Notes: a model not told the origin generated them from the sequence alone. Shown: positions 8,421 through 63,315, numbered from the whole stretch's first letter. The stretch: DNA of 63,315 nucleotides, filler included, from Psammoneis japonica (GCA_008632985.1; 6 parts of 6 records of this genome joined end to end with filler, not necessarily neighbours in it), one strand, 5' to 3'. A program made the numbers and translations.

Positions 8421-11400
8421 ATGAAGGTGAGAAGAACCCTAGCATCCACCACACCATCAGCCGGTTGGGCTTCCGGATCGTTTCCTACTAAAACACCCGT
8501 AATTTGCAGCTGCTAGCGACGGTAATTTGTCGGGGAAGTTTCCGGAACGTTTTGAAAACATGCATGGCCCAACCTCTCCTCGTCTTCTTCGTTACTCGCC
8601 ATGGTGTGGAGAGAGTCATTCAGTGTTCAGATGAACTTCCACCTCTTTTCATTGGTTGCTTGGCGTTGCGTTCGCTCTCCACTCACTTGCATGACATGAC
8701 GGTCCATGCAGATTCATTCATGGCCGCCATTGCCGTGCTCTATCGCTTGGCACAACCCACGACAGTGTCAGAAGCGTACACAGTAGCGGCTGGTATGTCT
8801 CTACGTATACGCAAATTTATTACGACCAAATCCTGTAAAATAATTTCCGTTGTGACGCTGACGTGACGTTGCACTCTTCTCCCTCCGACCAAGATGGGGA
8901 ACGTCTTCGGAAGTGAGACTGTCGAAGAAAGTTACGTAGAATTTGTACTAAAACAGTCTGTCAATCAGTGCGATTGGGTTTTGGGATCTCTGGACAGATC
9001 CTACGTGTTTTCTTGTGCGTACAAAATGCACTGGGAAAACCCCCAAACGCACTGGCGATCAGACCGCCTTCGACGATCTCACGCACTTCCAAAGACGCCC
9101 CCCAAAGAAAATTTAGCATGCTGTACAAAACACGAGCCTTTTTCCACAAACCAAAAAATCACCATGGCCACCACCTCGGAACGAAATGCCGTCGCAGCGG
9201 CGGAGTTGTCGGCCCCTGCTTGCCCCCTTCCAGAGAACGTTTCTAAAACACTCTCAAGTGTCTCCTGGCAAAAAGGGGCAAGCAGAGCCCAAGGCTTTGG
9301 AGAGGACATGTGGCTCCAAAGTGGGCTCGCATTTTTTCTGTTGCGGTGGCAACCAACGAACATGAGCAATGTTTCCAAGGTCCAACATGGAAGGCTTTGC
9401 ATGACATGACATTTCTTGGTTAGAATTTGTGACCAAGATGTTGGAAAGAGTGGCATCGCAGTCAGTTCGGGGTTTTTTCTTCTGCCGGCAGAGGTCCTCA
9501 AACAAGAACGAAGTTTGAGCAATGCACCTCCAGCTTCGCAATGATGTGCTTCGTAGATTGGATCCTTCGCACAGTCTGGGATTCACCTGATGCACAAAAG
9601 GACAATGCAAACTGGCAGCATCACAGGCCGCCAATCACAAACAGCGACATTTGGCTCCAAAAAGCAGGTTGGTTCTAGCACACTCGGAACCTGCACTCTG
9701 TTTTCCAACGTTTTCATGTCATTGCTGCAATGGTGAGAATGCAGCTGCAGCCTCAACAATGAGTGCAATGCTCAAGTTGCATGTGTTTGTGCTTCATTGA
9801 GACTTTTGCAGCTGGGAACCAAACAGTGCCGCCTCCAGGAGCAGCTTTCCACAGCAAACTGCAACGAATCGATGCCCCCAATCTTTGCAAATGCAGCTTT
9901 GTCTCAAATGCCTGTCCAAGAGATCCCACTTGGACTGAAGAGTTTGCAAACGCCAACAGCTGACTTGGAGTCAGTTTGCACTGGACAACTGTGCCGAGAT
10001 TGACGTGCACTCACACACTTGCCAGTTGCACCAGCTGTCAGCTTTTAAGAATCAGCAGACCAAAATCTTTGCAACACAGATTTGGTCTCAACTTTCCATC
10101 CAAGAGTTCCCACTGTGGTCTGAAGAGTTAATTCATGTCAATGGACAACTGAGGAACTTGTTTGAATTGGACGTTTGTGCTGAGAATGAAGCTTCACACT
10201 CGAAACAATTGCAGTGTCGTAAACGCACAACCAAAAACCTGCTTCCGTGTTGACCACTGTCCCAAAGAATGGTTGCTGACAGGAGATTGAAACAACAAGA
10301 CATGTGAGCATTGTTGACATTGCAAAAGAGATGGGCCCATCTTAGTTTGTGGTTGAACTCACCTTGAGAGCACTCTTCTGCTCCATCCGCCCCACAAAAA
10401 GATGTGCTCTTGAGCCTTGAGCATCGCGCCCATGTTCTGGCACTGGAGAAAACACCTTGAGGACAAGACGCTGTGAAATGCAAAGGCAGTGAGGGTCATC
10501 TGCGTGTGTTTGAAAGAGAGCGACACCTCCCGTCAGGATCAAATTTACCTCCAGTGCACCCCAACTCCACTGACATTGAAGCACTCCACAACAAGAGTGT
10601 GTGCTGCGACCATGTTTTCTGAAAAGCAAAAATTGCACTGGCTTGCACAGAATTTCAAAGCAAAAGCCCAACCCAATGTCAATGCTGCATGACAAGACTC
10701 GAAAATGGGGGTGTGTTTGCATCCACAGACCAGGCACTGTTGCATTTGTTGCCATTCATCATGGTGATGGTGCATCATGCTGTTGTTGCGTCTTCACCCA
10801 AATTCCAAAATTCTGCTGGGTTATGATGCATGTGCAGCAGAAATCTGCATCAATTTTCTGGCATGTCGAGTTTTGCACCAGAGCTGCGGAGGACCATGAA
10901 CCAACAACGAAACAGATGTGACACAGGAATGGCTTCTGAGCTGACACGCGCCACATCTTCCAATTTCATTCCTGCGCAAGGCGCGCACGATGCAGTCTGG
11001 CCAAGCTCCCATGCATGAACACAATCAAACAACAGGACAGATGGGCCATGTTCAATCAGCGTTGGATTGGTTGCCGGCCGGCCTCCCACTTCCAGTGCAT
11101 TCCTGCAGCCTCTGCGGAGACTTCGAATTGTTGCACGCCAAATTTTACGGGGCGGAGCTTTTCAAAATTTTGATTTTTTCTGAACACCGCAAAGCACACG
11201 ATGATGCTCGACAATCAGCATCAATGCTCACAATGGGAGGGATGCCAACATCGAGTTTGACATTTTATTTGATCCACGTCACACAGTGATGTCTGACACA
11301 CAGGTTGCTTCCAACACAAAAAGGAATGCCAAGAAGACTGAAGATGGCAAGGTCACTTGTCAGCGCATGTTCTGGGCAGAGATTGACAAAGTGGAGGCAG

Positions 11401-12774
11401 AATTGAGTGATTGCTCAATGGCCAAAGACTGCAACGGTTCTGAAAAGAATGCCCCTTGTTTGCACAAGCACCAACCCACCAGTGCACCGTGGATCTGGGG
11501 AAGACAACTTGTTGCCACATTTGTTGGTGTGGACAATGATGAGTTCAAACAATGGGGCCATTTGCATGATGAGGAATTGTGAACAAGTGCAGTTGCAAAA
11601 TGCACACAGCAGGAGAACAAAACAAAATTCTTTTCCTTTCGTTGCTTGCAGATTGTTCTCTTGAGATCACAGCGGCAGGAACTCTGTGGCTCTGACAGCG
11701 ACACTTTGAGTGCAAAAGCAGGTTGAAGGAGTTCACCCGTGCTTGTGGCACCACCTCTTGGAGCTCTCTAGAGAGAGTGCACTGTGGCCAGCAGTGATTG
11801 GAGTCATGAGTGTGGAGAGACGACACTCGACAGGCTCAACCTCGGCACAACCATCTCGCACAATCCTCTTGATGGACCGGCTGCACTCTCATGGTTCGGC
11901 TGGTCAAGTGGTTTGCCTCGCGGGGAGGGACCTGGAGAGGCATCTTGCAGTCACGTGAAAGGCACATGTCAACCAAGCATCATGTGCCCTTCCGGGCCTT
12001 TGAGAAGGAGTCTTTTTTTGGAATTTTGAAAAAATGGGACCTCGTTGGTGGGCAAAAGGAGCAAACGTAGAGTGATTTTTCAAACCGGTTGGATGGGTCT
12101 GATTTTCATGGACCAAGTGTAACACATGAAGATGGACAAGGGAACGATGGTTGCAGGGTTCTGTCTGCGTTGCAATGCATGGAACACCGATGGTGAAGTT
12201 GAGACCAAATTTGAGAAAAAGAGCTCCAGACATGCCACACGATTGCACAAAAGCACAAATGTCTCCAAAATGGTTCTGCAGATTTTTTGTCATTCACTCA
12301 TGTCATGCAGCTGAGCAAAAGAGGTGTTTTGGAAACGAGAAAAGTGGGGGGATTCTGACTCGTTTTTGAGACAGACAGAAGGCATTGAAGTTGTTAAAAA
12401 AACAGCACAAATGACATCACATGTGACATTGACAAATTGCCTTTGTTTCGACATGGCCAATTGCAATTTGTTGTTGCAACAAAAGAAAGAGCATTTCATT
12501 TGTTCTTTTCCTTTGATGAAAAGTTGCAAATCTCAGGAAGAGTTTTCTGATTGGCCAAAACACTCAAATGCAATGACCACTGACAAAACATCACACAAAG
12601 CCCAAAAAAATCACTTGAGCCCCCAAAAACTGGCACAGCACCCATCTGCCTGCGCATGTGTTGTGATCGCAATCAACACAGTCCCTGCCCCACTGCATTT
12701 GCACCAGACGTGTTCCAGCCGCACGTGAACCAAATCGTGCACAAAAACGACATTTGCGCGATTTTTGCGCGGCC

Positions 12775-13230
12775 CCTAACTTACGATCGAACTTTCACCA
12801 CCAAAAGTATAGATTTATACAAATATAAATGTTTTGCAACACTAACAAGACTCGTGTGAGTGTTGCAATATCATTGTTATTGTGCTATCTATGTTTTTCA
12901 TTGCGTTAAAAGATTCGTAACACAACGGATGATTTTCGGCGAAAATATTGCCGTTATTTGGATGTTACCTAAACATATCTTTCTACGATGCTACTTGGTA
13001 GGTTTTCTACCTACAAAAAAATCTCAGTATAAATCTACTGACGTACAATCAGTATTGAGTCTACTGAGGAAGTTTATGATACATATCCCATGAGGATTTG
13101 AATACCCCTCAAAAAAATATTTAAATGTTCATACTCTAGAAGCCTATAAAAGTCAATCCGTCTAAGTATTTTTATTAAAATACTATATACACTCAAATAT
13201 ACATATATTATATTCAAAATCCGATTGTCG
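12775..13230. other. AT-rich, TpA-rich island with several short inverted repeats
   Basis: ~55 TA in ~450 bp between nearly TA-free flanks. Hairpins: ttgcaacact/agtgttgcaa, attttcg/cgaaaat, gtaggt/acctac, ctcagta/tactgag, agtatttt/aaaatact. Confidence 0.85.
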
Positions 13231-13584
13231 TTTTGTGCGTCACTGGGACTGGAACACGTCACCAGCGAAAGACAAAACAATGACAGGTGATGCGATGCCT
13301 GCAGCCAATGGCACAAACATTGGAGTCCTCATCACTTTGTCAGAAGCAAAGCCTGAGATGTCAAGATTGAAGCAGTCCTCCGGCCAGTGCGTCGAAAATG
13401 CAACACACAGAAAAAGAGTTTTGTGCTTGCACACCATGACCATGCTTTGCAGTTTGTTCCCTCACCATTTTGTTCTGTCATGCTTTTCAGTGCCTCACCA
13501 TGATTCATCTGTGTGTGTGTGTGGTTTTAAATTGCACAGCAGGGTCTCTGCTGCTCTGCATTGCCAGAAACTCCTTCACAAAAC

Positions 13585-17500: not shown

Positions 17501-18715
17501 ATTTGCAGCAAGAATGTCTGCAGTCTGCAACAGTGGCAACAACAGCAACCTCATGCATGTGACCCAATTGCCACAGAACAAACAGTGGCAACAACAGCAA
17601 GCATGAATGTGAAAAGAAAAGTGGGGAGGAAATCACCTGTTGGATGCTGGCTCCATGTTGCACGCATCTGTCAGGCGCCACTTGAGTTGCTGCAGCTGTG
17701 CCGGACACATTTGTTCCAGACTCCAGTCCTCTTTGCCTGCTCTGCCTGCTCTGCCTGCTCTGCCCTGGTGGCTGCCAGAACCAGGGCCCCAGAGCAGAGA
17801 GCACCAGCAGGCAGGGCTCCATGTGACATGCACTGGCCCAAGAATTCAACAAACGGATGTGTTTTTGTCTTCAACATCAAAATGAACAAGAGCCAAGTTT
17901 GCACACTGGCAAAATTTTGTCTCTCAAAGCCTGTGCTGGCAGGGTCCAGGTCTACAAAACAGCACATTGACAATCCCAAAGTCACAAAGAAATGCACATG
18001 CACAACACATGAGGCAGATGAAAAGGAGCATCATTGTTGCTGCACAATCCAGCGCAGCAAGGTTCCACACACAGAGAGCTGGAAGGTGTTGCTGGCAGGT
18101 TTTTGTGCACTTGAGTCACTCCTCAAGTGGCAAGATGCAGTGTGTCAGTTGAATCCTCCTCTCTTTGTTGTCTGTGCCCAAGTCACACATGTGCGCACCA
18201 CTGCTGCATCCCTTTTCTTCCCATCACCTCAGATCCCAAAGCAAAAAGAGCAGCAGCAGGCACGTGCTCTTCTTTTGTCGCTGATGGAATCATCTGAGCC
18301 ACAGCCAGAATGAGCGCCAAACTCATTTCTCAACAGATGACACACCTCCTCTGCATCACTGCACAATGGCCCCCCAGGCAGCTTCCCAGCACAGTGCACA
18401 GTTCAAGAATGCCTGTCATTGACAGTGCTGTCTGTGCCAACAGGTGCGAGGTTTAATGTGAAGTTTGCATGTTTCCAATGGGCATGGGAAACAATGAGAA
18501 CCAACACACCACAAGCATTTGCAATCATGCGGTGCAGCACCAGTGCGACAAACACCACTTGCAATGGCAGCAACATGAAGCAGCAAATGGAGTCCCACTT
18601 TGAAAAGAAAACTCCAAATCCTGCTTGAGCTCTTGGCTGCTGACCACCCACTCAAGGACATTGGATTCAGCCCTCCGGCTGAAGCCACTTCAGATGAAAT
18701 GCAACTTTGCCATTT

Positions 18716-25725: not shown

Positions 25726-25743
25726 GGGAAAAGGGAGAGAGAA

Positions 25744-40150: not shown

Positions 40151-40299
40151 TTTGTGTTTTTGGAGTTTGGAGATGACGCACGCCGACACCCATGCTTGGC
40201 CTTGTTTGAGCTGTTCTTCATCATCTTCATTCATGGAGGACACAGACATCACTTTTGGGAGGTCGACGGGTCATGCAAGAGCCTTGGTTTGGAGAGAAA

Positions 40300-43841: not shown

Positions 43842-45165
43842 TTAAAGAACGTTCATCAAATGCGTTGATGCATCAAACACTTTCTTTTCCCAATGTTTGG
43901 CCTTCCACTCAATCGCAGAGCAACAGTCAGACAGAATTGGGTCCAGAAACGAGACCTTTTCGAAAAGAAGGTTCGTCTGAGTCTTTGCCAGCGTAGCAAA
44001 GCATGTCGACAACTCCAAAACTCTCTTCCCCCAATGTCCAACACTTGATTTGATCTCAGAGAGATGGTCAGACAAGACTGGGTTCCAAAAAAATGGCAAA
44101 AAATCATCGCGTTCCTGAAGAACGAGTGCCTGAGTTTGGATTTGTGCGATGACGTCATTCGAAAGTGCGTCTGCAAGTTTCCACCAAAGCTGAAACGCTT
44201 CCAACTTGACATCCAAAAAGACAGACTAGATCTCCAAAAATGTCGTGAACGTGTCTTGGAACGGGACTGACTTGGTCTCAGCCATGCTGTCGGGAGCAGT
44301 GTGGTGAAAGAGTTGCTGGAGGCTGCCGTTGGAGTCACCATTGTTGTCCTGAACAAAACATTCATGGACACAATGCTCGTTGTCATCTTCTGCTGGTGCA
44401 ATCGTGGGCGTGGCATTGTGCAGGAGGTCTTGGACGCAACTCGGAGACTTGTCGCCGTCGTCAAAACAAACACAAAAGCTGGAAATGATGATGGCGTTTT
44501 CGAAGGGAATGGTGCTGGGAGCGGCATTGGAGATGACAGCACGGCAGCAGCTGGAGGCAGTGTCGATGTCTGAGCAACTGGTGTTGTCCAAAAACTTGCG
44601 CAGGAGCTCTTGGCTGATCGTGGTGACACTGTCGGTTGCCGTGGCGGCCTTGATCGAAAAGGTGCTAACGGAGCGCTTTGCCGCATCAACAAACAAGGCA
44701 GGACGCGTTCCAGCCCCAGGTGGGACTCTGTGTGACATTGGGCCCGTAGAATTCTACGTGCGAGCTCCGCAGTGCGAGAATTTAATTGATGGATGCATTT
44801 GTCTTCAACATCAAATAAACGGCCAAGTTTGTGGCACAATTGTGCCTCTTGCCACTCGACGTTTTTGCAAGTGCGCCTGCCCCACGCGATTCTTAAGACA
44901 TCATAGAATCGCGCTGTAACAAAAAATGTCAAAAGTTGTTGGACGGATCGCTCAACAAGTGTGCCGTAAAATGACACAAAACATCGAAAAAATCACGTAG
45001 AAATCTACGTGCACGACACACGACGTGATTCAAAAAACTGTCAATGTCACAGTTCAGCAGTGCGAGGTCCCACCTAGACCTGGAACGTGTCGCAGAGAGA
45101 GGACTGATGATGGCACCAGTGCCCATGGCGGCAATGATGGCAAGGACAAAGTTCATGATTTTCAT
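43842..45165 (-). pseudogene. Putative secreted protein interrupted by a MITE
   Basis: Removing 44702-45091 plus one TSD restores the in-frame signal-peptide-like MKIMNFVLAIIAAMGTGAIISPLSALFVDA. One internal stop remains at ~44226. Confidence 0.5.
44702..45091 (+). mobile_element. MITE family A (390 bp), TSD GCAG
   Basis: Imperfect ~25-bp TIRs GAC(G/A)CGTTCCAG....AGGTGGGAC. GCAG at 44698-44701 and 45092-45095. Internal palindromes cgtagaattctacg and cacgtagaaatctacgtg. Confidence 0.9.
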
Positions 45166-46029
45166 GATGGACTGTGAACTGACGAGCAATTCAGAAATTG
45201 TGAGAGCACTCGAACGAGAAGAGATTCTGTCTGCAATGGAGGCACCGTGGTGCAAGACATGTGGAAATCTACATGGCATGGGCCGTTTCCCAGCTGCATT
45301 GAAGTTCGAAGAAAGTTTTTCGACAGTTGTTTTGGCGGAGTTGGTGCGTGCATTGATCTCAGCCGATCGTTCCATTCCACACAGCCTGCTCCACGCACAC
45401 GCACACCACGCACACGCATCACGGCATCATCGATCATCGGCATCGCAACTCGCAACGCATCATGGCACCAAACACCGCATGAACTTGGTGGTGGCCAGCA
45501 TGACGAGCAACGGGAGCGGGACAGTGCAAATGAAGAGAATGTGTCTCGTCCAATGCCACCAAGATTTGTCGTGTCAAAGTTTGTGTGATGGCGACAACTT
45601 TCGTCAGACTTGCAGTGTTTGTTTTGGAAAGCGCCATCTTTTTTGGTTTGCCACACACTGCTTTCTGATGAGACACCCTCTTTGCACATCAGTCTCTCAT
45701 CATTCAGCCCAACAAAACTCTTGAGCATGCAATGGAGGGCCATGCGATCCAACAACTGTCAATGGAAAATGTGCTTCAAGATGCTTGCAACAGATCTCAT
45801 CTGCATCTTCCACCACGCGCATGTGGTGCTGAGGCAATGCTGCTTTGTTCTCTGGATCAATGGACTTTGGATTTGATGTGGGGTTCATTTTTGCTTGTTG
45901 TTGACTTTTTGTTGCTCATGAGTTAGAAAAAATGGGATTGAATCTTTTAAAGAGATGATTGACAAACGAGAAGAAAGCTTGCAGGAGCGAAGAATGCCTG
46001 CCACCACAAACCACCACGTGCTCAAATCT

Positions 46030-47820
46030 GCTTGATGATTGGTGGACAGATTGTCACTTCATCAAAGGCCTTGGCAATCATTCCTTCCAAGGCCTTGGTG
46101 TTGGCAATTCCAGATTCCATCAAGGCATTGGCGACTCATGTTTCATGTCGGGAACTTGCGCCATCTGCTCAGTCTCCGTTCGAGGTGCATCTTCTCATGT
46201 GGGCACTTGTGATTGCTCTTGCCTTGCTTGTCAGAACTGTTTGGTGTCAAAATGTGCCCAGCAACACTGAAGGAAAGGCTCAACATGCTCTTCACGATGG
46301 TGACAAGGTGGCATGGATCAAAGACGCAACCAAAGACAATGACATCCTGACCAAAGCATGATTTTTGCTCTCGCTGATTTGTGTTTTCTGTGATGTTGGT
46401 TTGTTGGCCTTCCTCATTTGGTGCCATGCCACTGCTCCTGCCACAACAAGTTGTTTTGTTGGATCCTCAATTCCCAGTTGCGGCTCAGTGGCTGTTGCGG
46501 CATGACCTTCTGGCGAGCTGGTGTTTGCACCATCTAAAGCCACAATGACAGTTCCTTCAAAGGCTTTGGTTGTTCCTTCCAAGGTGGTTGCTCCATTCAC
46601 CCTGGACTCTTGCAAGGCTTTGGAAATTCATGTTCCGTCATGGAAGTGTTTGACATCGAAAGCCTTGGCAATGGTTTCAAGTGTGGGACTTTCAACATTG
46701 GATGCATTCACGGCCTGTGTTCTCCCATTCAGATGAGACTTGCACCTGAGGATGCCATGGTGGCTCATGTTCCGAGTCAAGAGACTGCAATGTTGGTGGC
46801 TTTTTCATTTGCTTGAGGGCCTCTGGCATGGATGCTTGCCACAGTTGGGCCTGCCTCAATTCAAGCCATGATCAAACAGCGCAGAAACAATGAGGAAGAA
46901 CCCAAACCAATTGTGAAGTGGTGGCCAGTGTTCTTCTCTCTTGTCCTCTTTGTTCTCTGCATCATGATGACTGGTTTCTGTTGCTTGCACTCTTTGCCTT
47001 GAACAATGAATGAATCTGTCTTCTGACTGCCTTCATGTTCCCAGTTGATGGCATTGGTGATTCGCCCTCTTGGTGCATTGATGCTTGCGCCATCCAAGAA
47101 CTTGACCGTCATTCCTTCCAAGGCATTGGCATTGGCATTTCTGGATTCCAGCAAGGCATTGGTGATTCAAGTCTCTGATTGGAGTCACAACGCCGCTGAG
47201 TCTGTGTCAGAAGCCACAGCAGTTCATGTTCCACGTCGGGAAATCGTTTTGTCTGTTCAGTCTCCTTTCAAGGTGCATCTTCTGACATGGGCACTTGTGG
47301 TTGTGCTTGCCTTGATTGTTGGAGTCATCTGGAATCAAACTGTGCCCAATGATCAACGTGTTCTTCATGATGGGGACGTGGGTTGCAGCTGCTGTGGACC
47401 AAAGATGCCAAGAAAGACAAAGAAATGAAACTCCAAGCACAACTTTTGCTCTTGTTAATTTGTCTTTTCCGTCTTGTTGGTTTGTCGGGTCTCCTCATCT
47501 GGTGCCATTCCTCTTCTCCTGCATTTGTGAGCGATTTGGCTGGCTTGCTGCCATGTCACTCAGGATTGGCTGCATTGGTGATTCGTCCCATTGGCGAGTT
47601 TCAATGATTGCTCCATCAAAATCTTTTGTGACCACACCATCCCAAATTGGCATGGTTGCCCCTTCCAAAGCACTGGTGCCAAGCACTCTGAATGGTTGCA
47701 AGGCCTTGACGATGCATGTCCAGCTTTTGAAACTGGCGTTGTCAAAGGCCTTGGCGGTTGTTGCATGTTGGGACCTTGCAGTGCTGGAGGCAGTCACAAC
47801 TTGCACCCCAACTTGAAAGT
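46030..47820 (+). repeat. Degenerate coding-like repeat units
   Basis: IPSKAL..LDSxKAL..HV-type motifs recur near 46060, 46530, 47100 and 47650. QSPFxVHLLxWALV plus a hydrophobic segment occurs twice. Confidence 0.5.
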
Positions 47821-50800
47821 TTGTTGCATCGAATGACAACGTGCTTCATGTTCCAAGTCGAGGTGTTGTGCTGTTGATGGCCTCTCCATGTGGCTTTGAG
47901 GGCTCATTTTTTTTTCTTGCAATGATGGGGCTTTTTTGGATTTTACTTCAAAACTGCATGGGTTCTTTGATGACAGCAAAGAACCTTTTCCAAATCCTTG
48001 CTCTCTTGCCCGAGATGCATTTTGTCAGCAAGACCGGATCCCACCCCCTCTGACATCACACCTCTGGATCATCTGATTCCACCTCAAATCCTGGCCCCTC
48101 TTGTGTTCAAGACAATGACATCTTTCCACCGCAAGATGCTCCGGTTCCTGTTGAAGACCCAGTCCTTCCCCTTCAGCTCTGGTTCCTCCACAAGATCCAG
48201 TCCCTCCCCTTCAAGGCATGGACAATCCTCCTCCAACCCCTCCTCAATTCCTGTGCCAAGTCGCCAATGATGAACGACGAGTGCTGCAGCATTCTCCCCA
48301 TCTCAGCAGTGCTGCAGGAAGCATTTGCCTCTGCTCTGAGAATGTCAGATTTGTTTGTCAATCTGCAAGGCTGGCATGCCAAGCATGCTTTTGCATTCTT
48401 GTTTGTGCTTTTGTGTTTTCTGCACCAAATCATTGCATTGTCATCTTTTGCTCAGCTTTTGTTGCTTTGTGTGCTTTCAATGCATTGCATCTGAGTGTTC
48501 TGCACAGTCGTTGTTGTTCTCTTGACTTTGTTGTGTTCAGTGTTTGCCGGTTCCTCGTGTTTGTTTTGAATTTGCTGGTGGTGGAGTTGCATTGTTTTGT
48601 GCTGCTTTGTTGTTGAACCCACGCAGTTTGTCAACTCTCGTCACTGTTGCGTTGCTTCATGTGCGCATGTGGGTTCCAGTTTTTTGTTTTAATTTGAGAA
48701 GTTGTGGTGCTTTGTCATTTGCATCAACGTTTGTTGATGCTGTCATTGTTTTTGCTGCTGTCATTTTAGTGCCATGTGTCACAAAACTGTTGTCATCTTT
48801 TTGTTTGTTCTGGTTTGTTTTGCTGTTTGCCATTGTTTGCTCAAGTCCATTTTTGCTTCATTTCATTGTTGGCGATGTTCTTGTTGCTTGATCATGGCAC
48901 TGTGTTTGCGCTTTTGTCATTGCACTTGTTTTGTTTTGCTTTGAACTGCATTGTCTTGCAGGCTTCAAGCATTTTTCTTGGCTGCTCAACCCCCCCCCCT
49001 GTCAGTGTCACTGCTTTGGTGAGATGACATCTTGCTCGACTGGCTTTCGAAAGGCAGCACCAAAGGCGCGCGCTCATGTTCACATGCTTGTGTGCTTGTG
49101 CTTCTTTCTCCTTTTGCCACTTGCATTCACAAGACTGTCGTGGCCTCCACCGCCACAAGTTCATCCTCAAGACCTGGCCCTTCTTGTTGTCCATCATCAT
49201 GCCCTGTGTCCATTTTGCCACTTGAATTGCCTTCAATTCTGTCTCCTCCAAATTGTCTGTTTGGTCTCCATGTCACCCCCAAATCATTGGCATTTCATGC
49301 AACCCACCCCACCACCTCCAACCTCACTTCATTTGTGTCTCCACCCTTTTGAACTTCCCCCCATCTGTTGACACATCACCACCTCGTCCACGTTGTCTGA
49401 CTCGTCACCTCAGCACCTCCAAATTGTTCGTTTGTGTGCAATGCAATCCACCCGCCTCCTCCAACACCTCCAGTTCATCATTTCCATTTGTTTCTCCACC
49501 ACCTCCAACTTCCCTCCATCTCACAACATGTCACTCCCTTCACAATGTTGGATTCGTTGCCGCCACATCTCCAAACCATTCCCTCGCATGCCACGCAATC
49601 CACCCTGCCGCCTGCAATGTCGTCAGCTCGTCTTCCATGCTTTGTTCCATCTCCCTTTGCTTCCATCTCCACCACCTTCAAATTCCTCCGTGACTCCCTC
49701 CACAGTGTTGGATTCAGGCCACAACACCTCCAGATTGTTCATTTGCGCAATTGCGTGCCACGAGCAATCTGCCCTGCTGCCTCCAATGCCTCCAGTTTGT
49801 CTTGTTCGCCCTGTCCTTCATTTCCGTCTCCTCCACCTCAAATGCCTTTGTTTGTCTCACCTCTCCTGTGTTGCCATCCAAACCACTGACTCTGTCTGCC
49901 CGCGGTTTGGGTTTTGCTTCACAGCGATGCTCAAGGTGAGCACAGTGTGCTTTTGTGCTTTCATTGCCTTGGCATTTCTTCACTTGTTTTGCCAATCCTT
50001 GCTGTTGATTTGGTTTGGAGAGTGATCTTTTTTCAAATTGATTGCACTCCAAACCATCCCCCCCCCCCCCCCAAAAAAAAACAAAGAGATCTCCTTCCCT
50101 TGTTCGAATTGGGCCGGAGCAGTCATGCCGATGCACAAGGGTGAGCAACAGCGGGCCCACCCCGCAACTTGTGTTTTTCAAACAAAGTGTGGACCAGGAG
50201 TGTCATTGGCGTGTGGCTGTGCAACTTTGGTTGCTCTTGAAAGCCTGTGCCTCACCTTTTGCACCAGTGCATTGACGAGCTTTTGNNNNNNNNNNNNNNN
50301 NNNNNNNNNNNNNNNNNNNNNNNNNNNNNTTAATTAATTAANNNNNNNNNNNNNNNNNNNNNNNNNNNNNNNNNNNNNNNNNNNNGTTCTGAGTGGTTGT
50401 GAGTCTTTGCGCTTCCTGAGGTCGCTGGCTCGAATCGGCCTCAAATCCAAGCCTCCTTTTCTTTCTCGGCCTGCCCCTTTCCAACCCCATCCGGGGTGGG
50501 CGGCTGGGCTTCGAACCCACTCCTCCCTTGGCCAGATGCACCACATGGCACCAACCCATCCTGCCTGACAGAGGGAGTGCATGGTCAAATTTGCAAGTCC
50601 GCTGTGCAGATGCACCACATGGCAACAACCCAGAGTTGGACAAATGCTGTGCGATGATGCTGTGCACAACACACGCATCAGAGTGCACGAACGTTAAAAA
50701 TGTGTGGATTTGCATGATGGCAATTTGTCAAAATGTTGCAGAAAAATTGTTGTCACACAATGACAGGCCAACCTCTGGTTGCAAGTTTGCTGTGCCAATG

Positions 50801-51613
50801 TCACGACAACTTGTTGAGAATCATGTGCGCCATTTTTCACTGTGCCCACATCGCCATTTCTGCCTCCACCTTGTTGCCATGTGCCAATCCATGATTGCAT
50901 TGCCGCACAATCCTTGGTTTGTCAATTTTTGCAAACAGGGGTGTGATCACAGAACCACTTGCATGCCTGCTTGTTCCTTGTTTGCTGCCAGCGACAGTGT
51001 CTGGGCCAAGCGGATCCCATGTCGGCACAATCGGGATGTCTTTCTTTTCGTTCTTGTCACGGCTTGACTTTTTCCTGCCTTGCTTTTTCCTCTTGACTGC
51101 CGCCTTGAGTTTCTTTTCTTTTTCCTTTCCCTCTTCCTTGGCAACAACGCCTGCACAGACAAAGCATCACCGTCATCTTCTTGCGAGATGCGCGCAACTC
51201 TCGAGTCACACACATTGGTCACCCAACTTGCGGGCCATTGCCTCCACCCCAACAGCCGAACACACCGTGTTTCTGAGATTGTCAACTTGCCTTTTTGCCG
51301 CCTCTTTTGCCCATTCCTCCCAAGTTCCTGACCAATTTGAAGTGTCCATGTTGCCACCAGCAATCTGTTTCTTGACAAACATTGAGATGCTCCCATTGCT
51401 TGCCAGTTCTGATGGACTGAGAAACTTCACCTGTGAAAAGAGATCATTTCCAGCCACCTTCTCCACTTCTGGTTTCAGCGCACCATGCGCTGCCTGCACG
51501 CCCATTCTCTTCAACACTGCCTGAAGTCTCAGGCTCATTGGCTCAACAGTCTCATTTTTCTTTCTCTTCTTTGCCGGTGGTGCTGGAGACGACATCTTGA
51601 TCTTTTCACAGCA

Positions 51614-51874
51614 GGCCTGTTCCAGCTCCAGGTGCTCCGCGCGGGTTCGATTCCCATCATTTGGAAATTTGTGCATTTGGCGCAATTGACTTTTTCCAAA
51701 TCCGTTTTTTGGCAAATCAAAGGGTGAGTGTGCACTTTGCATGCATTTTTGGGTGTACACTCACCTTTCGATTTTCGAAACGATCAAAAATTGAAGGAGT
51801 CAATTGCGCCAAACTGCGCAGAAAATCGGCCTCTCGCGTGATGAAAAGCAGAGCACCTGGAGCTGGAACAGGCC
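51614..51874. mobile_element. MITE family B (261 bp), TSD AGCA
   Basis: Perfect 24-bp TIR GGCCTGTTCCAGCTCCAGGTGCTC. AGCA on both sides. Internal IR ttggcgcaattgact/agtcaattgcgccaa. Confidence 0.9.
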
Positions 51875-53152
51875 AGCAACAATGAGAGGAGCATTGCTGT
51901 TCGACAGTGCAGCCGTCATTTGGGTCGTGTTGAGACAGCCAGCCACTCCATTTTTCTCCACAACGTTGAACAAATTGTTGTCAGCAACCACGCTGCTGCA
52001 GTGCATCCTTGCTCCAAAGAGTGCGCACCAATGAGGAATGTCCCCATTTGCGTGGCTGCTGCCATGTGGGTTGATCCAGCCAATGGACAGCCGCGCCCAC
52101 TGCCAGCCCACAAGGCTGTGTTTTTCAGGGAAAGAATGACTGACACCCCTGCTGTGCCCCAGCCAACTGTGAGCAAGTGAGCTGACTGTCCACGACACCC
52201 CTCGCCAGTTTGACCCCAACAGCGCGCACTCTGTTGTTTTCCCTGACTTGAAAATCAGGGTGCTTTTGCGCGCGCAAGGTGAGTTGAGTGCCAGAGCGGG
52301 ACTTGGGCCTGTCTGCAGAGAAGACTTCAATGTCAAGGTCAAACAAACATGTCTTGAAAACAAACATGTCGTTTCAAGGAAAACAAACATGTCGCTTCAA
52401 GGGAAAAAAAATGTCTTTTCAAGGAAAACAAATGCGGCGTTTCAAGGAAAACAAACATGTGGTTTCAATGAAAACAACCATGTCTTTTCTGGGAAAACAA
52501 GTGTGGCGTTTCAAGGAAAACAAACATGTCTTTTCAAGGAAAACAAACATTTCGTTTCAAGGAAAACAAACATGTCTTTTCAAGGAAAACAAACGTGTCG
52601 TTTCAAGGAAAACAAACATGTCTTTTCAACGAAAACAAACGTGTCATTTCAAAGAAAACAAACATGTGGTTTCAAGGAATGCAAACATGTCTTTTCAAGG
52701 AAAACAAACATGTCTTTTCAAGGAAAACAAATGTGTCATTTCAAGAAAAACAATCGCGTCGTTTCAAGGAAAACAAACATGTCTTTTCAGGGAAAACAAA
52801 CATGTCTTTTCGGTGAAAACAAACATGTCGTTTCAAGGAAAACAAACATGTCTTGAAAACAAAACATGTCTTTTCAAGGAAAACAAACATGTCATTTCAA
52901 GGAAAACAAACATGTCGTTTCAAGGGGGAAAATGGATGTCTTTTCAAGGACAACAAACGTGTCGTTTCAAGGAAAACAAACATGTGTTTTCAAGGAAAAC
53001 GTTAGATTGGACATTGGATGTTTGCCGCTCGAGACAGCACAGAGCCAACAGAGACAAAATTTGCCAGGGGCCGCACTCAAGATGGCGCCTGCCACTCAAG
53101 ACTGGATGTTGGGCACTCGAGACACTGCAGTTCACCACTTGAGATGATGACA

Positions 53153-53542
53153 GACGCGCCCCAGGTCCAGGTGGGACCTCGCACTGCTGAACTGTGACAT
53201 CGACAGTTTTTTGAATCACGTCGCATGTTGCGCACGCAGATTTCTGCGTGATTTTTTTGACATTTTTTGTCATTTTATGGTGCATTCATTGAGCGATCCA
53301 TCCAACAACTTTTGACATTTTTTGTTGCAGCGCGATTCTACAATGTCTTGAGAGTCGCGCAGGGCAGGTGCACCTGCAAAAACGTCGAGTGGCAAGAGGC
53401 ACAATTGCACCACAAACTTGGCAGCTCATTTGATGTTGAAGACAAACACACCCATTGGTCAAATTCTTGCACTGCGGAGCTCGCACGCAGAATTCTGTGG
53501 GCCCAATGTCACACGGAGTCCCATCCAGGACTGGAGCCCATC
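53153..53542 (-). mobile_element. MITE family A copy, inverted and more mutated
   Basis: Reverse complement aligns full length to 44702-45091. TSD is not intact. Confidence 0.85.
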
Positions 53543-53624
53543 GTTTTCAAGTGAAACAAATGTGTGGTTTCAAGGAAAACAAACATGCAAACAAACATGT
53601 GGCTTCAAGGAAAACAAACATGTC

Positions 53625-54010
53625 AACGGGTTCCAGCCCCAGGTGGGACTTTTTGTGACATTTGCCCCGTGGAATTCTGCGAGCTCTGCAGTTCGCACTC
53701 TGGTTGATGGACACATTTGTCTTCAACATGAAAAAAACGACCAAGTTTGTGGCACATCTGTCCATGCAGGTGCTCGAAGTTTTGGACAACATGCATGCCC
53801 TGCACCATTCTCAAGACACTCGAGAATGGCACAGAAGAAAAAAAATGTCAAAAGTTGGTCAATGCATGGCCTGACAATTGCACTGCAAAATCACACAAAA
53901 TTTTGCCACAATCACGTAGAAATGTGCGTGCGCGACATGCGACGTGATTCAAAAAACTGTCAATGTCACAGTTCAGCAGTGCGAGGTCCCACCTGGACCT
54001 GGAACGTGTC
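53625..54010 (+). mobile_element. MITE family A copy inserted in a satellite unit, TSD TGTC
   Basis: aaaca-TGTC-[element]-TGTC-gtttcaagg restores one satellite monomer. Confidence 0.9.
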
Positions 54011-54208
54011 TGTCGTTTCAAGGAAAACAAACATGTCTTTTAATGGAAAACAAACATGTCATTTCAAGGAAAACAAACACGTCTTTTCAAGGAAAACAAA
54101 CGTGTTGTTTCAAGGAAAACAAACATGTCTTTTCACAGAAAACAAACATGTCATTTCAAGGAAAACAAACCTGTGGTTTCAAAAAAAACAAACATGCCTT
54201 TTCAAGGA

Positions 54209-54398
54209 GCGAGAATGGCGCAGAAGAAAAAAATGTCAAAAGTTGATCAATGCATGGCCTGACAATTGCGCTGTAAAATCACACAAAATTTTGCCACAGT
54301 CGCGCAGAAATGTGCGTGCACGACACACGACGCGATTCAAAAAACTGTCGATGTCACAGTTCAGCAGTGTGAGGTCCCACCCAGACCTGGAACGCGTC
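54209..54398 (+). mobile_element. 3' half of MITE family A, co-duplicated with the satellite
   Basis: Matches 53820-54010, including the TGTC right flank. Confidence 0.85.
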
Positions 54399-55589
54399 TG
54401 TCGTTTCAAGGAAAACAAATGTGTGTTTTCAAGGAAAACAAACATGTCATTTCAAGGAAAACAAACACGCCATTTCAAGGAAAACAAACATGTTGTTTCA
54501 AGGAAAACAAATGTGTCTTTTCAAGGAAAACAAACATGTCGTTTCAAGGAAATCAAACATGTCTTTTCAATGAAAACAAACATGTCGTTTCAAGGAAAAC
54601 AAACGTGTGGTTTCAAAGAAAACAAACATGTCTTTTCAAGGAAAACAAGCATTTTGTTTCAAAGAAAACAAACATGTCTTTTCAATGAAAACAAACATGT
54701 CGTTTCAAGGAAAACAAACATGTCATTTCAAGGAAAACAAACATGTGGTTTCAAGGAAAACAAACATGTCGTTTCAAGAAAAACAAACATGCCATTTCAA
54801 GGAAAACAAACATGTTGTTTCAAGGAAAACAAATTTGTCTTTTCAAGGAAAACAAACATGTCATTTCAAGGAAAACAAACATGTCGTTTCAAGAAAATCA
54901 AACATGTCGTTTCAAGGAAAACAAACATGTGGTTTCAAAGAAAACAAACATGTCTTTTCAAGGAAAACAAACATGTCTTTTCAAGGAAAACAAACATTTC
55001 GTTTCAAAGAAAACAAACATGTCTTTTCAATGAAAACAAACATGTCGTTTCAAGGAAAACAAGCGTGTCATTTCAAGGAAAACACACATGTGGTTTCAAG
55101 GAAAACAAACATGTCGTTTCAAGGAAAACAAACATGCCATTTCAGAGAAAACAAACATGTTGTTTCAAGGAAAACAAGTGTGTCTTTTCAAGGAAAACAA
55201 ACATGTCGTTTCAAGGAAAACAAACATGTTGTTTCAAGGAAAACAAACATGTCGTTTCAAAGAAAACAAACATGTCTTTTCAAGGAAAACAAACATGTCT
55301 TTTCAAGGAAAACAAACATTTCGTTTGAAAGAAAACAAACATGTCTTTTTAATGAAAACAAACGTGTCGTTTCAAGGAAAACAAACGTGTCATTTTAAGG
55401 AAAACAAACATGTGGTTTCAAGGAAAACAAACATGTCTTTTCAAGGAAAACAAACATGTCGTTTCAAGGAAAACAAACACGTCGTTTCAAAGAAAACAAA
55501 CACGCCATTTCAAGGAAAACAATCATGTTGTTTCAAGGAAAACAAATGTGTGTTTTCAAGGAAAACAAACATGTCGTTTCAAGGAAAAC

Positions 55590-56234: not shown

Positions 56235-56784
56235 GAAAACAAACATGTCTTTTCAAGGAAAACAAACATTTTGTTTCAAAGAAAACAAATGTGTCTTTTC
56301 CATGAAAACAAACATGTCGTTTCAAGGAAAACAAACATGTCATTTCAAGGAAAACAAACACGTGGTTTCAAGGAAAACAAACATGTCGTTTCAAGAAAAA
56401 CAAACATGCCATTTCAAGGAAAACAAACATGTTGTTTCAAGGAAAACAAATGTGTCTTTTCAAGGAAAACAAACATGTCGTTTCAAGAAAATCAAACATG
56501 TCGTTTCAAAGAAAACAAACATGTTGTTTCAAGGAAAACAAACATGTGGTTTCAAAGAAAACAAACATGTCTTTTCAAGGAAAACAAACATGTCTTTTCA
56601 AGGAAAACAAACATTTCGTTTCAAAGAAAACAAACATGTCTTTTCAATGAAAACAAACATGTCGTTTCAAGGAAAACAAGCGTGNNNNNNNNNNNNNNNN
56701 NNNNNNNNNNNNNNNNNNNNNNNNNNNNTTAATTAATTAANNNNNNNNNNNNNNNNNNNNNNNNNNNNNNNNNNNNNNNNNNNN

Positions 56785-58375
56785 CGATTTCCGAGTGTCG
56801 ACTGCAGCCACTCCCCTTTTTGCATCCAGCAGCAGTCCATGCAGATCTGAACAAAGCCACTTTTCTTAAAATCAATCACTGTTCCAAACCGCGTCTTGAC
56901 CCTTTGGGCAAAATTCTTGGCGGACATGTTGCAATTCAAGTGACAAGCGGGGCTGCCATCCTGCAGGGACACAGTGCATGCACGAACATTTGAGTTCGTG
57001 TGGAGATCCTGAACGACTTGACACCTTGCCTCATCTCTTCTTTGCTGAGTGGATCGGACAGCCTCCACGCCACGGTCCGAACATCTCATCTAATGTCAGG
57101 TTTCCGGCCATGACGGGCCTCGTCATGCAAAGCCACAGGACATTTGCACCTCCGTCTTGTCTGGGGATGACATGACAATGTGAAACAAAAGCACAGGAGG
57201 AGTCATGTTGCGGGTTGAGATTTGTGAAAAACATGACACCAAACAATTGCAGGAGTTCTTCGGCTGTTGACAGACTTGCACTCAAAAATGGCATTCACAT
57301 GTTTGTCCATGTCAAAATCTTGCACTTGTAAAAGGACCGGTGGCTCGGGTCGATCGTACGCGGTTGCATTGCTTGTGTCATCTTCATCGGATTCTTGATC
57401 CTGCGACTGAAGGACAACAGAATCTGCTGTGACAATTGGAACGCGGCAGTCAGAATCAGGACACGAGCAGTCCTCCGACAACACAGACTCCTCCAAAGAC
57501 AATGAGCTGAGTTCATTGTCTGCNNNNNNNNNNNNNNNNNNNNNNNNNNNNNNNNNNNNNNNNNNNNNNNNNNNNNNNNNNNNNNNNNNNNNNNNNNNNN
57601 NNNNNNNNNNNNNNNNNNNNNNNNNNNNNNNNNNNNGCAGACAATGAACTCAGCTCATTGTCTTTGGAGGAGTCTGTGTTGTCGGAGGACTGCTCGTGTC
57701 CTGATTCTGACTGCCGCGTTCCAATTGTCACGGTAGATTCTGTTGTCCTTCAGTCGCAGGATCAAGAATCCGATGAAGATGACACAAGTAATGCAACCGC
57801 GTACGATCGACCCGAGCCACCGGTCCTTTTACAAGTGCAAGATTTTGACATGGACAAACATGTGAATGCCATTTTTGAGCAAGTCTGTCAACAGCCGAAG
57901 AACTCCTGCAATTGTTTGGTGTCATGTTTTTCACAAATCTCAACCCGCAACATGACTCCTCCTGTGCTTTTGTTTCACATTGTCATGTCATCCCCAGACA
58001 AGACGGAGGTGCAAATGTCCTGTGGCTTTGCATGACGAGGCCCGTCATGGCCGGAAACCTGACATTGGATGAGACATGTTCGGACCGTGGCGTGGAGGCT
58101 GTCCGATCCACTCAGCAAAGAAGAGATGAGGCAAGGTGTCAAGTCGTTCAGGATCTCCACACGAACTCAAATGTTCGTGCATGCACTGTGTCCCTGCAGG
58201 ATGGCAGCCCCGCTTGTCACTTGAATTGCAACATGTCCGCCAAGAATTTTGCCCAAAGGGTCAAGACGCGGTTTGGAACAGTGATTGATTTTAAGAAAAG
58301 TGGCTTTGTTCAGATCTGCATGGACTGCTGCTGGATGCAAAAAGGGGAGTGGCTGCAGTCGACACTCGGAAATTG
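56785..58375. repeat. ~740-bp near-identical inverted duplication around a gap
   Basis: 56785-57523 is the reverse complement of 57638-58375, with a few substitutions and two 2-bp indels. Confidence 0.9.
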
Positions 58376-59452: not shown

Positions 59453-61860
59453 TTAGACCGGGTTGAGTGAGTAGAAATCGACCCTCGGAGAGCTTTTCGA
59501 TCTTGATCCGAGAAAGTGCCCGACTTCTCCTTCGTCTCTAAGTTCAAATGCGTGGCGATGTTCGTCGTCGGAGACTCCTGACTTGCGAATTTCGGCTTCT
59601 AGAGCTTCAGCTGAAGCTCCAGCAAAAACGGTGTCGTCGACGTGCACCACACACATCATGCCCTCTTTGAAATACAAACAGGGATCTGTGGCTGAAGGTG
59701 CCCATCCGCGCTCGGTTAAACCAGCTCGTAACTTCTCGCAGAAGCCCTTGGGAGACTGTTTTAGGCCGCACAGTCCTTTCAAAAGTTTGAGAACCACATT
59801 GAGTCCCGACCTTGGCGCAAATCCCTTCGGCGGTGTCGCACAAACTTCCTCGGCGACATCAGCTTGGCAAAAGGCTGTGGTGCAGTCCACCTGTCGTGCA
59901 GTCCATCCCTCCTTTAACACCGCAGTGAGCATGAGTCGGACACTGGACCATTGCACAACCGGCGCGCAGGTTTCGAAGTGGTCGACTCCTTCTTTCTGCA
60001 AATCACCGCGGACGCAGTGTCGGGCCTTATACTTGAGAGGGGTTCCATCTGGGAGTCTCTTGAGCTTTAGTGCCCATGTGCCTGGAAGCACATTCATGTG
60101 CAGCTGACGCTCGACTGCTTTCCAGGCTCGACGATGTGTGAGTGCGTTGACTTCAATTTTCATCGCCTCAATCCATTCGTCGGCGTCCGGACCTTTCAGA
60201 GCATTGTGCAACGAAGGCACATCAGGGTCCTTGGTTTTCTTGCTAGCTGCGTAGGCTCGTGGATCGCTGACATTGATGGCACCACTGTCCAAATCCGTCT
60301 CGAGAGTCGCCAGATACGCCAGTTGAGCCTCGTGTCCGATCGGTGGCGGCATTTCCTCGACGGAGCTGAAGTGGACCTCATCTACAAACTTGGCAGAGTT
60401 GAACTGTCCCTTGGTTGACCGTGAAGACCGTCGCAGCCCTGGCACTCCCTCTGGATTCGTCAGAGGAGGTGTCTCGACTGGGGGAGGAGCTGTTGGTTCC
60501 GTCGGTGCTTCGGGTGGCAGAAGTCCATCACCATCTTGAGGTTCAGGTGGCTGAATTGGCGCAGAGTCCATAGAGTCTGTAGGAGTTTGAGTCACAGGTG
60601 GGACTGGTGGCGTTGGCTGCTGAGTCGTAGGTGCGACTCGATCGGTGACGTCGTCGCGAGAAATGGGTGAATCCGGCGCAGCAATCGATGGAGCAGGCTC
60701 AAAATGCCCGCGAATGCGTGTTGCTCTGGCTAGTTCTCGTTCTTTACGTTGACGCTCTGGAGGGGTAAGCCACTCATCGTGTAAATGAACTGCCTGATCC
60801 TTCTCCAGAGGGATGCACATCGATTGGTTGAGGCACAAGTGTTCCCAGTGATCAGGTGGATCCGTCTCCCTCTCGATTGATGGCACGGCAGTGAAGAGAT
60901 CGTCAAAGACCACATGACACTGAGGTGCAACACTTCCAGTTTGAAGATTGAGGACCAAAGGAACCTCACTGGAATGGATGGCACTGAGTCCCACGAACAA
61001 AGCGCGACGAGTGCGAGGCTCCCAACGCGGGAGCTTCTTCCCGGAAGCGAGGGTCGGGTCAAGTGCGCACGCTGGACATCCCCATGTGTGAATGTCGCGC
61101 AACCGATGTCTTGGCACTGTCGAACCGGTGAAAATGTCCGCTGGGCAATGTCCTTTGGAATTTGGGGTGACATTGTAGATGTGCGTGGCACAAGAAACTG
61201 CCATGGGCCATAGGGAGCTGTCAATTCCCCCCTTCCAGTGCATTGATGCATGAAGCAACATCGCTCTCGCCATGTTGGAGATGCTGCGGATGCCCCGCTC
61301 TGCGACGCCGTTCTGATGATGGGCGTTGGTTCCACAAAAACGGAGACGTTGTTCATGATCTCGTGTGTGTTGTACAAAAGCGTTGGCCTTGAAAGCGCCA
61401 CTGTCGGTAAGAAATTCTTGGACGATGACCCCGTGGTCCAAAGCATGTTTCTCAAACGCTTGCTTCGCGTGCATCGTCTCAACAGCGGAGAAACCCAGTT
61501 GATGCTCGACCTGGACATGGCCAGAGGCGTGGTCGACAAAGACACAACCGCCCTTGAATTGCTTGGACATGGCTTTGCCATAAGAGTCGAAGGTGCGGCC
61601 GAAAAGGCGCGACTCAAAATGATCAACGCTGACAGCCTGACCCGGTCGAAGATGGTCAGCTCGAAGGGCCCCGTCGCGTTCAGGGACTGTCGACTTGTGA
61701 GTAGATCCAAGAGAGCATCTGTGACCTTAGCATGTTCGCATGCCTCGCATCTTGGGTGGTCCACACTTCGCTGCGGACTTGAAACGGTTCGAAAGGAATG
61801 GAACTGCGCGGAGAAGTGCTTGGACGCAGCCAAAGTTCAAATGGCCAAAACGGGCATGCA
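59453..61860 (-). mobile_element. Ty1/copia LTR retrotransposon pol fragment (GAG-pre-integrase, integrase, RT), inactivated
   Basis: CEACEHAK, VFVDHASG, TDSG, AHHQNGVAER, HVVFDD, KYKARHCVRGD, LCGLKQSP, VVHVDD (catalytic YVDD). Integrase precedes RT. Confidence 0.95.
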
Positions 61861-61967
61861 TTTCGAGNNNNNNNNNNNNNNNNNNNNNNNNNNNNNNNNN
61901 NNNNNNNNNNNTTAATTAATTAANNNNNNNNNNNNNNNNNNNNNNNNNNNNNNNNNNNNNNNNNNNN

Positions 61968-62589: not shown

Positions 62590-63315
62590 AGTTTCAAGGA
62601 AAACAAACATGTGTTTTCAAAGAAAACAAACACGTGGTTTCAAGGAAAACAAACATGTTGTTTCAGGGAAAACAAACATGTCTTTCAAGAAAAAAAACAT
62701 GTCTTTCAGGAAAACAAACATGTTTTTTCAAAGAAAACAAACATGTTCTTTTCAAGGAAAACAAATGTGTCATTTCAGGGAAAACAAACATGTGGTTTCA
62801 GGGAAAACAATCATGTCTTTTCAAGGAAAACAAATGTGCATTTTCAAGAAAAACAAACATGTCATTTCAAAGAAAACAAACATGTCTCTTCAAGGAAAAC
62901 AAATGTGTCATTTCAAGGAAAACAAACATGTGGTTTCAAGGAAAACAAACATGTTGTTTAAAAAAAAAAAACACATGTCATTTCAAGGAAAACAAACATG
63001 AAACAAACGTGTCGTTTCAAGGAAAACAAACGTGTCTTTTCAAGAAAAACAAACATGTCGTTTCAAGGAAAACAAATGTGTCCTTTCAAGGAAAACAAAC
63101 GTGTCCTTTCAGGGAAAACAAACATGTGCTTTCACAAAAAACAAACATGTTTTTTCCAGAAAAACAAACATGTCTTTTCAAGAAAAACAAACATGTTGTT
63201 TCAAAGAAAACAAACATGTCTTTTCAAGGAAAACAACATGTGGTTTCAAGGAAAACAAACATGTGGTTTCAAGGAAACAAACATGTCGTTTCAAGGAATA
63301 AAAACATGTTTTCAA
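62590..63315. repeat. 23-bp satellite array, same family, more diverged
   Basis: TTTCAAGGAAAACAAACATGT units continue to the window end. Confidence 0.95.

Follow-up and report, generated by a model that had tools for sequence, protein, structure and literature searches.

We analysed a 63,315-nucleotide stretch of DNA from Psammoneis japonica (GCA_008632985.1), hereafter the window, which holds copies of a short transposon, MITE-A (a miniature inverted-repeat transposable element, MITE), in DNA from which the dinucleotide TpA has nearly disappeared. The window consists of six contigs chained by artificial N44-TTAATTAATTAA-N44 linkers and has three plain N gaps besides; distances and neighbourhood across the linkers are meaningless, and the linkers contribute 15 artificial TpA. 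It looks eukaryotic and includes a Ty1/copia fragment, cold-shock-domain exons and an amino-acid transporter exon; scans of the window for tRNAs and Rfam families gave no matches. We think it quite probable that the MITE-A copies and the compartment surrounding them undergo, after insertion, a transition of TpA to TpG or CpA at the DNA level. Feature coordinates are collected in Table 1.

Table 1. Features of the window and their dinucleotide content
Feature	Position	Strand	Remarks
MITE-A copy A	44702..45091	+	390 nt; 11 TpA (rho 0.42), 26 CpG (rho 1.16)
MITE-A copy B	53149..53542	-	full length; 86% identical to A; 2 TpA (rho 0.08), 20 CpG (rho 0.82)
MITE-A copy C	53629..54014	+	full length, divergent centre; 1 TpA (rho 0.04), 14 CpG (rho 0.64)
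MITE-A copy D	54212..54402	+	3' half only; 1 TpA
Degenerate MITE-A fragment	17839..17924	+	73% identical to element positions 74-149
Pristine related non-autonomous element	12707..13260	+	554 nt; 55 TpA (rho 0.95), 25 CpG (rho 1.47)
Border from TpA-normal/CpG-normal host-like DNA to TpA-depleted DNA	9124..9244		within one contig, no gap
Candidate secreted-protein gene, interrupted by copy A	44229..45166	-	member of a multi-copy family
23-nt satellite arrays (unit GAAAACAAACATGTCGTTTCAAG)	52356..55589		hold copies B, C and D; almost no TpA
23-nt satellite stretches	52356-53000, 54011-55589, 56235-56679, 62592-63309		132 units on several contigs
Local duplicates in depleted DNA	19032-19523, 35536-35819, 39206-39536, 46039-47348		transitions:transversions 94:46; 22 TG/CA flips
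Duplicates in the TpA-normal region	3385-3756, 6628-7684		no TG/CA flips
Ty1/copia integrase and reverse-transcriptase fragment	59456..61726	-	rho TpA 0.16-0.30
Artificial linkers (N44-TTAATTAATTAA-N44)	23414-23513, 50286-50385, 56685-56784, 59303-59402, 61868-61967

MITE-A and the TpA-depleted compartment

MITE-A is a MITE-like class II element: a DNA transposon about 390 nt long, non-autonomous and present in many copies. We assign it to this class because it has terminal inverted repeats, 4-base-pair target-site duplications and an empty paralogous site. In copy A the inverted repeats lie at 44702-44726 and 45067-45091 (25 nt, 84% complementary), and GCAG, read by eye, bounds the element at 44698-44701 and 45092-45095. 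Copy C has TGTC on both sides, a tetranucleotide that also flanks copy D (again read by eye). The empty site comes from a paralogue contig of the flanking gene, which joins 44700 to 45092 with the element absent; a second paralogue of this gene carries a single GCAG, in our reading of the contig alignment. The 12-nt terminus of the element is present at six element ends in the window, and two subterminal palindromes bear the cgTAga...tcTAcg motifs quoted in the initial annotation of this DNA. That annotation had described the element as non-coding and as lacking an RNA intermediate. We agree on both counts: the open frame through copy C gave no protein matches, and the structural features listed above are those of an element that moves without RNA.

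Copy A interrupts its host gene about 25 codons past a signal-peptide-like start, as seen when the gene is translated with the element removed (N-terminus assessed by eye). In run X1, made up of the genome's own read contigs, depth over the flanks of this gene is 236-3232 against 35.7 in unique flank, and the gene is accordingly multi-copy. Altogether 3420 X1 contigs align, at a likeness of at least 80%, to the 1.2-kb stretch 44300-45500, which comprises the element and its flanks. Summed depth over the element, a rough guide rather than a copy number, is 110,000-490,000 against the same 35.7, which indicates that the family has roughly thousands of members. A 19-mer query for further copies in public collections returned six metagenome, two genome and no viral matches, all of them chance matches of 19-24 nt.

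The initial annotation had counted four copies. All four stretches do belong to one family, but D is a half copy: together with the 3' half of C and with satellite units it lies in a 388-nt tandem duplication (53821-54596, 90% matches). D therefore arose by duplication of C, and the insertions number three independent events, not four. Copy C is 78% identical to copy A and sits inside the 23-nt satellite, which copy B adjoins.

The surroundings of these copies are strongly depleted in TpA. Over the whole window rho TpA comes to 0.16, and past 9.2 kb most 500-nt windows have values of 0.00-0.1 (approximately 0-2 TpA per 500 nt), while rho TG and CA reach 1.6-1.9 in the window and TG/CA 1.5-2.1 in most 500-nt windows beyond 9.5 kb. 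Over the depleted 51.6 kb (9501-63315), deficits of TA (-3161) and CG (-1287) are roughly balanced by excesses of TG (+2039) and CA (+1934). Across 115 windows, rho TpA correlates with rho CpG (Spearman 0.63) and inversely with TG/CA (Spearman -0.71). We considered GC-biased conversion as a cause and rejected it, since the remaining A/T dinucleotides show no depletion (AA 1.32, TT 1.28, AT 0.84). The sequence context of surviving TpA is not interpretable, as the count takes in the artificial TTAATTAATTAA linkers and the pristine element described below.

Depletion is regional, and its border is sharp. Positions 1-9124 have a rho TpA of 0.40-1.03, normal CpG and host-like genes; from about 9244 on, rho TpA is 0-0.1 and rho CpG 0.15-0.6. 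The host-like region includes matches to a cold-shock domain (CSD/CSDE1) in minus-strand exons at approximately 4.0-5.0 kb. A host-like open reading frame (ORF) has two unnamed protein matches at 41% identity. Farther along, depletion is partial in 24501-27000, which holds the amino-acid transporter exon together with a WD40-like ORF; with rho TpA 0.14-0.34 and rho CpG about 0.9, this stretch is intermediate between the host-like and the converted states.

Within the depleted DNA lies one element that has kept its TpA. The pristine element at 12707-13260 has 12-nt termini (GACGTGTTCCAG) of the same type as those of MITE-A, matching perfectly at both ends, and an intact target-site duplication (ACCA/ACCA); its interior is AT-rich and unrelated to MITE-A. 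The same transposase probably mobilised it, in a very recent insertion. Both of its flanks have a rho TpA of 0.04 and a rho CpG of 0.29-0.33, and the compositional step coincides exactly with the ends of the element. Arranged by rho TpA/rho CpG, the sequences form an age series: pristine element 0.95/1.47, copy A 0.42/1.16, copy D 0.08/1.11, copy B 0.08/0.82, copy C 0.04/0.64 and flanks 0.04/0.3. The direction of CpG decay is known and TpA falls in the same order; hence TpA loss has the same arrow. It proceeds about four times faster than CpG decay.

Differences between copies and between duplicates

All strings quoted in the initial annotation were located in the sequence. cacgTAgaaatcTAcgtg lies in copy A (44994-45011) and cacgCAgaaatcTGcgtg in copy B; gctgTAac and ttcTAcg in A stand opposite gctgCAac and ttcTGcg in B; and accTAgacc in A (45072-45080) appears as accTGgacc in C (~53990) and in B, and as accCAgacc in D (~54378). 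The TpA counts of the copies (Table 1) bear out the claim that A keeps TAs that are TG or CA elsewhere. At nine of the 11 TpA sites of A, B has TpG (five) or CpA (four), the other two being shared; the reverse case was never seen (9:0, binomial p = 0.004). Between A and B we counted 55 transitions and 7 transversions, and AT-to-GC differences occupy 9 of the 22 positions within A's TpA against 23 of the 186 other A/T positions (p = 0.002). Parsimony assigns 12 changes to the branch of A and 32 to that of B. Strand coordination was assessed by a hand count of TG and CA runs between A and B, and the four runs over nine sites are no different from random.

CpG decay alone could in principle generate such differences: the sites would have been CpG in the ancestor, methyl-cytosine deamination would have turned them into TG or CA, and a double hit would have left TA in A. 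CpG is indeed depleted in the same DNA (rho 0.15-0.6), CG versus TG/CA differences are common (12 between A and B), and CG, CA and TG occur together at satellite sites. The initial annotation had itself raised the prospect of CG at the TA sites. However, no copy in the window has CG at any of A's TA sites, although 16 of the 24 aligned CpG of A survive in B. The copy richest in CpG is A itself, a poor fit to double hits at 9-11 CpG. CpG retention accounts for about one of the ten sites at which A and B differ as TG versus CA (TG/CA flips), and the TpA deficit of 3161 is left unexplained by CpG decay. We therefore give this explanation almost no credence.

The same kind of change is found in local duplicates. 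Local duplicates in depleted DNA have 22 TG/CA flips against 96 conserved sites, to which the comparison of A and B adds 10 against 53. Flips thus make up 32 of 181 sites in depleted DNA and 0 of 72 in three TpA-normal duplicate pairs (p = 1e-5), with transition:transversion ratios of 168:55 and 33:51, respectively. Of the 22 flips in the duplicates, CpG retention would account for about 7. The flip excess implies an ancestral TpA frequency of 0.042 per nt; that of the host-like region is 0.041. We also note a 439-nt tandem repeat in depleted DNA (39276-40152), with two copies 99% identical and 165-nt subrepeats. It is a very recent duplication, which could date the last round of conversion.

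We examined the 23-nt satellite as a polarity test and rejected it, as its consensus lacks TA and homogenisation of the arrays distorts the counts. At satellite site 10-11 we counted CA in 104 units, TG in 14, CG in 12 and TA in none; two other CpA sites are nearly invariant. Elsewhere in the window, 56787-58373 contains nested perfect inverted repeats of 200-300 nt (98-100% complementary) around the N gap at 57524-57636, which represent either a large palindrome or an assembly artefact.

Direction of change

Paralogues of the flanking gene polarise the change independently of MITE-A. Among the 26 flank positions listed, where the paralogue majority represents 2-12 contigs and 75-100% of depth, that majority has TA at eight places where the window has TG (six) or CA (two), and CG at seven places where the window has CA or TG. 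Two of the 26 are TG/CA flips, and at none of them does the window have TA against TG/CA in the paralogues. Polarised A-to-G or T-to-C changes at TpA are found at these eight places of the flanking gene, at eight Tyr codons of the copia element (now TGY, CAC or TGG; see below) and at 44967 in copy C.

Compared with copy A, the MITE copies found elsewhere in the reads contain more TA and also carry extra CpG. Among the 40 places listed out of 153 that vary between the window and the read contigs, the letter that makes TA occurs in other family copies at 44788 (39% of depth), 44795 (40%), 44801 (23%), 45040 (12%) and 45058 (8%), all of them sites with TG or CA in A. At 44835, 44883, 44902, 44982 and 45019, A has CA and B TG, and the majority letter is T (83-99%). 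In a small run, X3, which probably assembles only abundant repeats, the differences from A are C>T at eight and G>A at nine places against A>G at four and T>C at one (17 versus 5 places); with only five A>G/T>C places, at most two of the five T-majority sites can therefore be TG in X3 contigs. At 45013 and 45043, CpG in X3 copies stands opposite CpA in A. At 44794-44797, which reads TGCA in A, TGTG in B and CACA in C, an X3 contig carries G>A and C>T, giving TATA if the neighbours are unchanged. Copy A is itself a minor variant of MITE-A, unlike the family majority at eight or more of the listed places; at 45019 about 1% of depth shares its letter.

Parsimony among the four copies, with C and D as outgroup, favours a TA ancestor at 44747 (B CA, C TG) and at 44967 (A, B and D TA; C CA). 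It is tied at 44998 and at the accTAgacc site, 45075, where a TA or a TG ancestor costs three steps. We consider this analysis equivocal and have not used it as proof of direction. The initial annotation had reasoned from accTAgacc, a single site resolving both ways, that TA is ancestral and that both strands were hit; the conclusion stands, although four copies alone are insufficient to carry it.

A number of observations weigh against a loss of TpA, and several of them fit the opposite polarity, in which a C-to-T process at CpA/TpG, resembling repeat-induced point mutation (RIP) or APOBEC activity, made TA from ancestral TG and CA. The same parsimony favours a TA gain in A at 44783, 44894 and 45006. 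TA-bearing copies are a minority at 44801, 45040 and 45058, where all four window copies are non-TA and a majority rule makes TA derived. Relative to A, places with C>T or G>A in other copies (72) exceed those with A>G or T>C (51). The remaining points concern the material itself: (i) the 5' inverted-repeat partner of accTAgacc is CA in A and C, TG in B and never TA; (ii) copies C and D are not independent, which weakens any argument from four copies; (iii) TG/CA polymorphism in the satellite arises around CpG without any TA; (iv) several of the TA assignments in other copies presuppose an unaltered neighbouring letter, and none of the 40 listed places falls on the TA sites named in the initial annotation; and (v) run X1 may be the source from which the window was assembled.

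Despite these points, we regard the opposite polarity as highly unlikely. The genome footprint is the reverse of RIP, with TpA nearly absent and CpA/TpG in excess, and TA-rich copies are also CpG-rich. Conserved Tyr codons have been lost in the copia element, and no conserved His or Cys has turned into Tyr. The window copy of the flanking gene lacks TA that the paralogue majority has at eight sites, with no site reversed. That TA is ancestral, was lost at the DNA level and was hit on both strands is supported, on evidence that goes beyond the four-copy argument.

A further alternative is that TA and TG/CA variants mark subfamilies, fixed in master elements before transposition. The position of A as a minor variant, at odds with the family majority at eight or more listed places, and the divergent centre of C and D would suit such an account. 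However, C and D were duplicated in place and each lost a TA kept by the other, at the equivalent of 44967 in C and of 44998 in D. The same changes are present in flanking non-transposon DNA and in local tandem duplicates, and the step in composition falls exactly at the ends of the pristine element. Subfamily differences as the only cause thus appear quite unlikely.

The copia element shows what loss of TpA can mean for a protein. Its best protein match is a diatom protein (57% identity), in a search whose length limits could have concealed proteins of the source organism itself, and we aligned it with the 26 best-ranked of 298 matches. Tyr makes up 0.92% of its residues versus 3.17% in the homologues (relatives' range 2.36-3.85%), and its catalytic motif is HVDD where relatives have YVDD. 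Among 15 conserved Tyr, 12 are replaced: six by Cys (TGY), one by His (CAC, in HVDD), one by Trp (TGG) and four by Phe. Other conserved columns are replaced at 52 of 364 (p = 6e-8), and in 24 copia columns with conserved His or Cys no change to Tyr was found. Six of nine first-position A-to-G changes are preceded by T, and four of five second-position T-to-C changes yield NCA. Tyr-to-Phe needs a transversion, which TpA hypermutation does not make; the four Phe may therefore reflect selection for TA-free codons in the copia lineage.

Proposed mechanism and comparison with known systems

In the sequence of events that we consider probable, a MITE-A copy would insert into a particular genomic compartment, where all DNA would be exposed to a transition process. 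TpA would become TpG, or CpA when the opposite strand is hit, at about four times the rate of the accompanying decay of CpG to TpG/CpA. Young insertions would still be TA-rich and old ones almost TA-free, and duplicates that had lost the same ancestral TA independently would now differ as TG versus CA. Of these elements, the sequence itself shows the direction, the specificity for TpA, the two outcomes, the accompanying CpG decay, the regional border and the age series. For the chemistry, enzymatic deamination of adenine preceded by T in DNA is the mechanism that we favour and would most likely account for the change. It would fit the U33-A34 substrate of ADAT/TadA deaminases, which naturally edit A34 after the invariant U33. 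Targeting might rely on a silencing mark in common with cytosine methylation, as suggested by the correlation between rho TpA and rho CpG (0.63).

The same direction of change could also result from other chemistry. The thymine of TpA could be modified, for example to 5-hydroxymethyluracil (5hmU), and mispair with G, giving T-to-C; or selection could act against TA. TpA is self-complementary, and in sequence A-to-G on one strand is indistinguishable from T-to-C on the other. Papers on dinoflagellate 5hmU indicate that protists do have enzymes that modify thymine. Selection would need to target each TA, whether in a satellite, a pseudogene or a MITE, and in the marine alga Bigelowiella natans, discussed below, the process appears as new mutations in mutation-accumulation lines (bioRxiv 10.64898/2026.01.13.699255). 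We consider these alternatives to adenine deamination unlikely.

A more speculative extension of the deamination model is that the system is a mirror image of RIP. In a eukaryote that may not be Bigelowiella, a DNA-level TpA adenine deaminase, co-targeted with cytosine methylation to a bounded compartment, would erase TpA from all transposons, satellites and duplicated genes arriving there, faster than CpG decays. Resident retrotransposons would have purged their Tyr codons in response, in part through conservative Tyr-to-Phe changes beyond the reach of the mutation itself. We offer this as a tentative possibility, which we would not call probable. If true, it would imply a long arms race and a system perhaps widespread among protists.

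The locus is also useful as a natural time series. Its insertions range from pristine to fully converted, so that rate relative to CpG, strand symmetry and compartment borders are open to measurement with no experiment needed. MITE copies, in their thousands, offer existing reporters with which to find the enzyme and its targeting signal. The copia element, with its lost Tyr codons, illustrates how such a process reshapes proteins and suggests that mobile elements adapt.

Several known systems share features with the one described here. Methyl-CpG decay in vertebrates and plants has the same products, TpG and CpA, and a depletion that rises with age, and CpG decay is present here as well. It differs in that the main substrate here is TpA, lost about four times faster than CpG; opposite the TA sites of A we found no CG in B, C or D. 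APOBEC3 acting on retroelements and ADAR acting on repeat RNA are likewise cases of deaminase hypermutation of mobile or foreign sequence, but their substrates are cDNA or RNA. What is affected in our case is a class II element without an RNA intermediate, and a satellite; the change must therefore have been made in genomic DNA. Fungal RIP resembles our case as a regional, transition-only, dinucleotide-specific mutation of repeated or foreign DNA with a sharp-bordered footprint. RIP turns CpA/TpG into TpA; the process described here removes TpA and raises CpA/TpG. The excess of TpA and deficit of CpA/TpG that mark RIP in repeats are absent, and the footprint is the opposite. Literature searches for other systems of TpA loss returned only papers on fungal RIP and one preprint on B. 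natans.

In that preprint (Mettrop et al., bioRxiv 10.64898/2026.01.13.699255), mutation-accumulation lines show a rate of about 6e-7 per site per generation in two integrated viral regions, with a range of 1e-7 to 1e-6 and in some lines only. The hypermutation is almost exclusively on TpA and yields TpG or CpA; 124 TpA-depleted, CpA+TpG-enriched clusters are reported, with 324 coding sequences at a TpA frequency of 0.0018. Its authors propose an ADAT2-like DNA adenine deaminase, and state that ADAR prefers a 5' U ahead of the edited A (bioRxiv 10.64898/2026.01.13.699255). Our cut-offs for TpA depletion were taken from the preprint; by these, most windows beyond 9.5 kb are TpA-depleted and TG/CA-enriched in the manner of B. 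natans. The two cases are alike in the dinucleotide target, the two outcomes, the sharply limited clusters, a comparable residual TpA and the enrichment of transposon-related sequences. They differ in that for B. natans new mutations were observed, in the integrated DNA of giant viruses and virophages, whereas ours is read from a sequence footprint, and in what is hit, here a DNA transposon family, a satellite, a copia element and a multi-copy host-like gene. CpG decay accompanies TpA loss here; the words MITE, satellite and CpG are absent from the preprint. TpA-directed genomic hypermutation has so far been reported once, in this 2026 preprint, and there only for integrated viral DNA. The footprint described here matches TpA hypermutation of the B. 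natans type, extended to transposons, satellites and duplicated genes.

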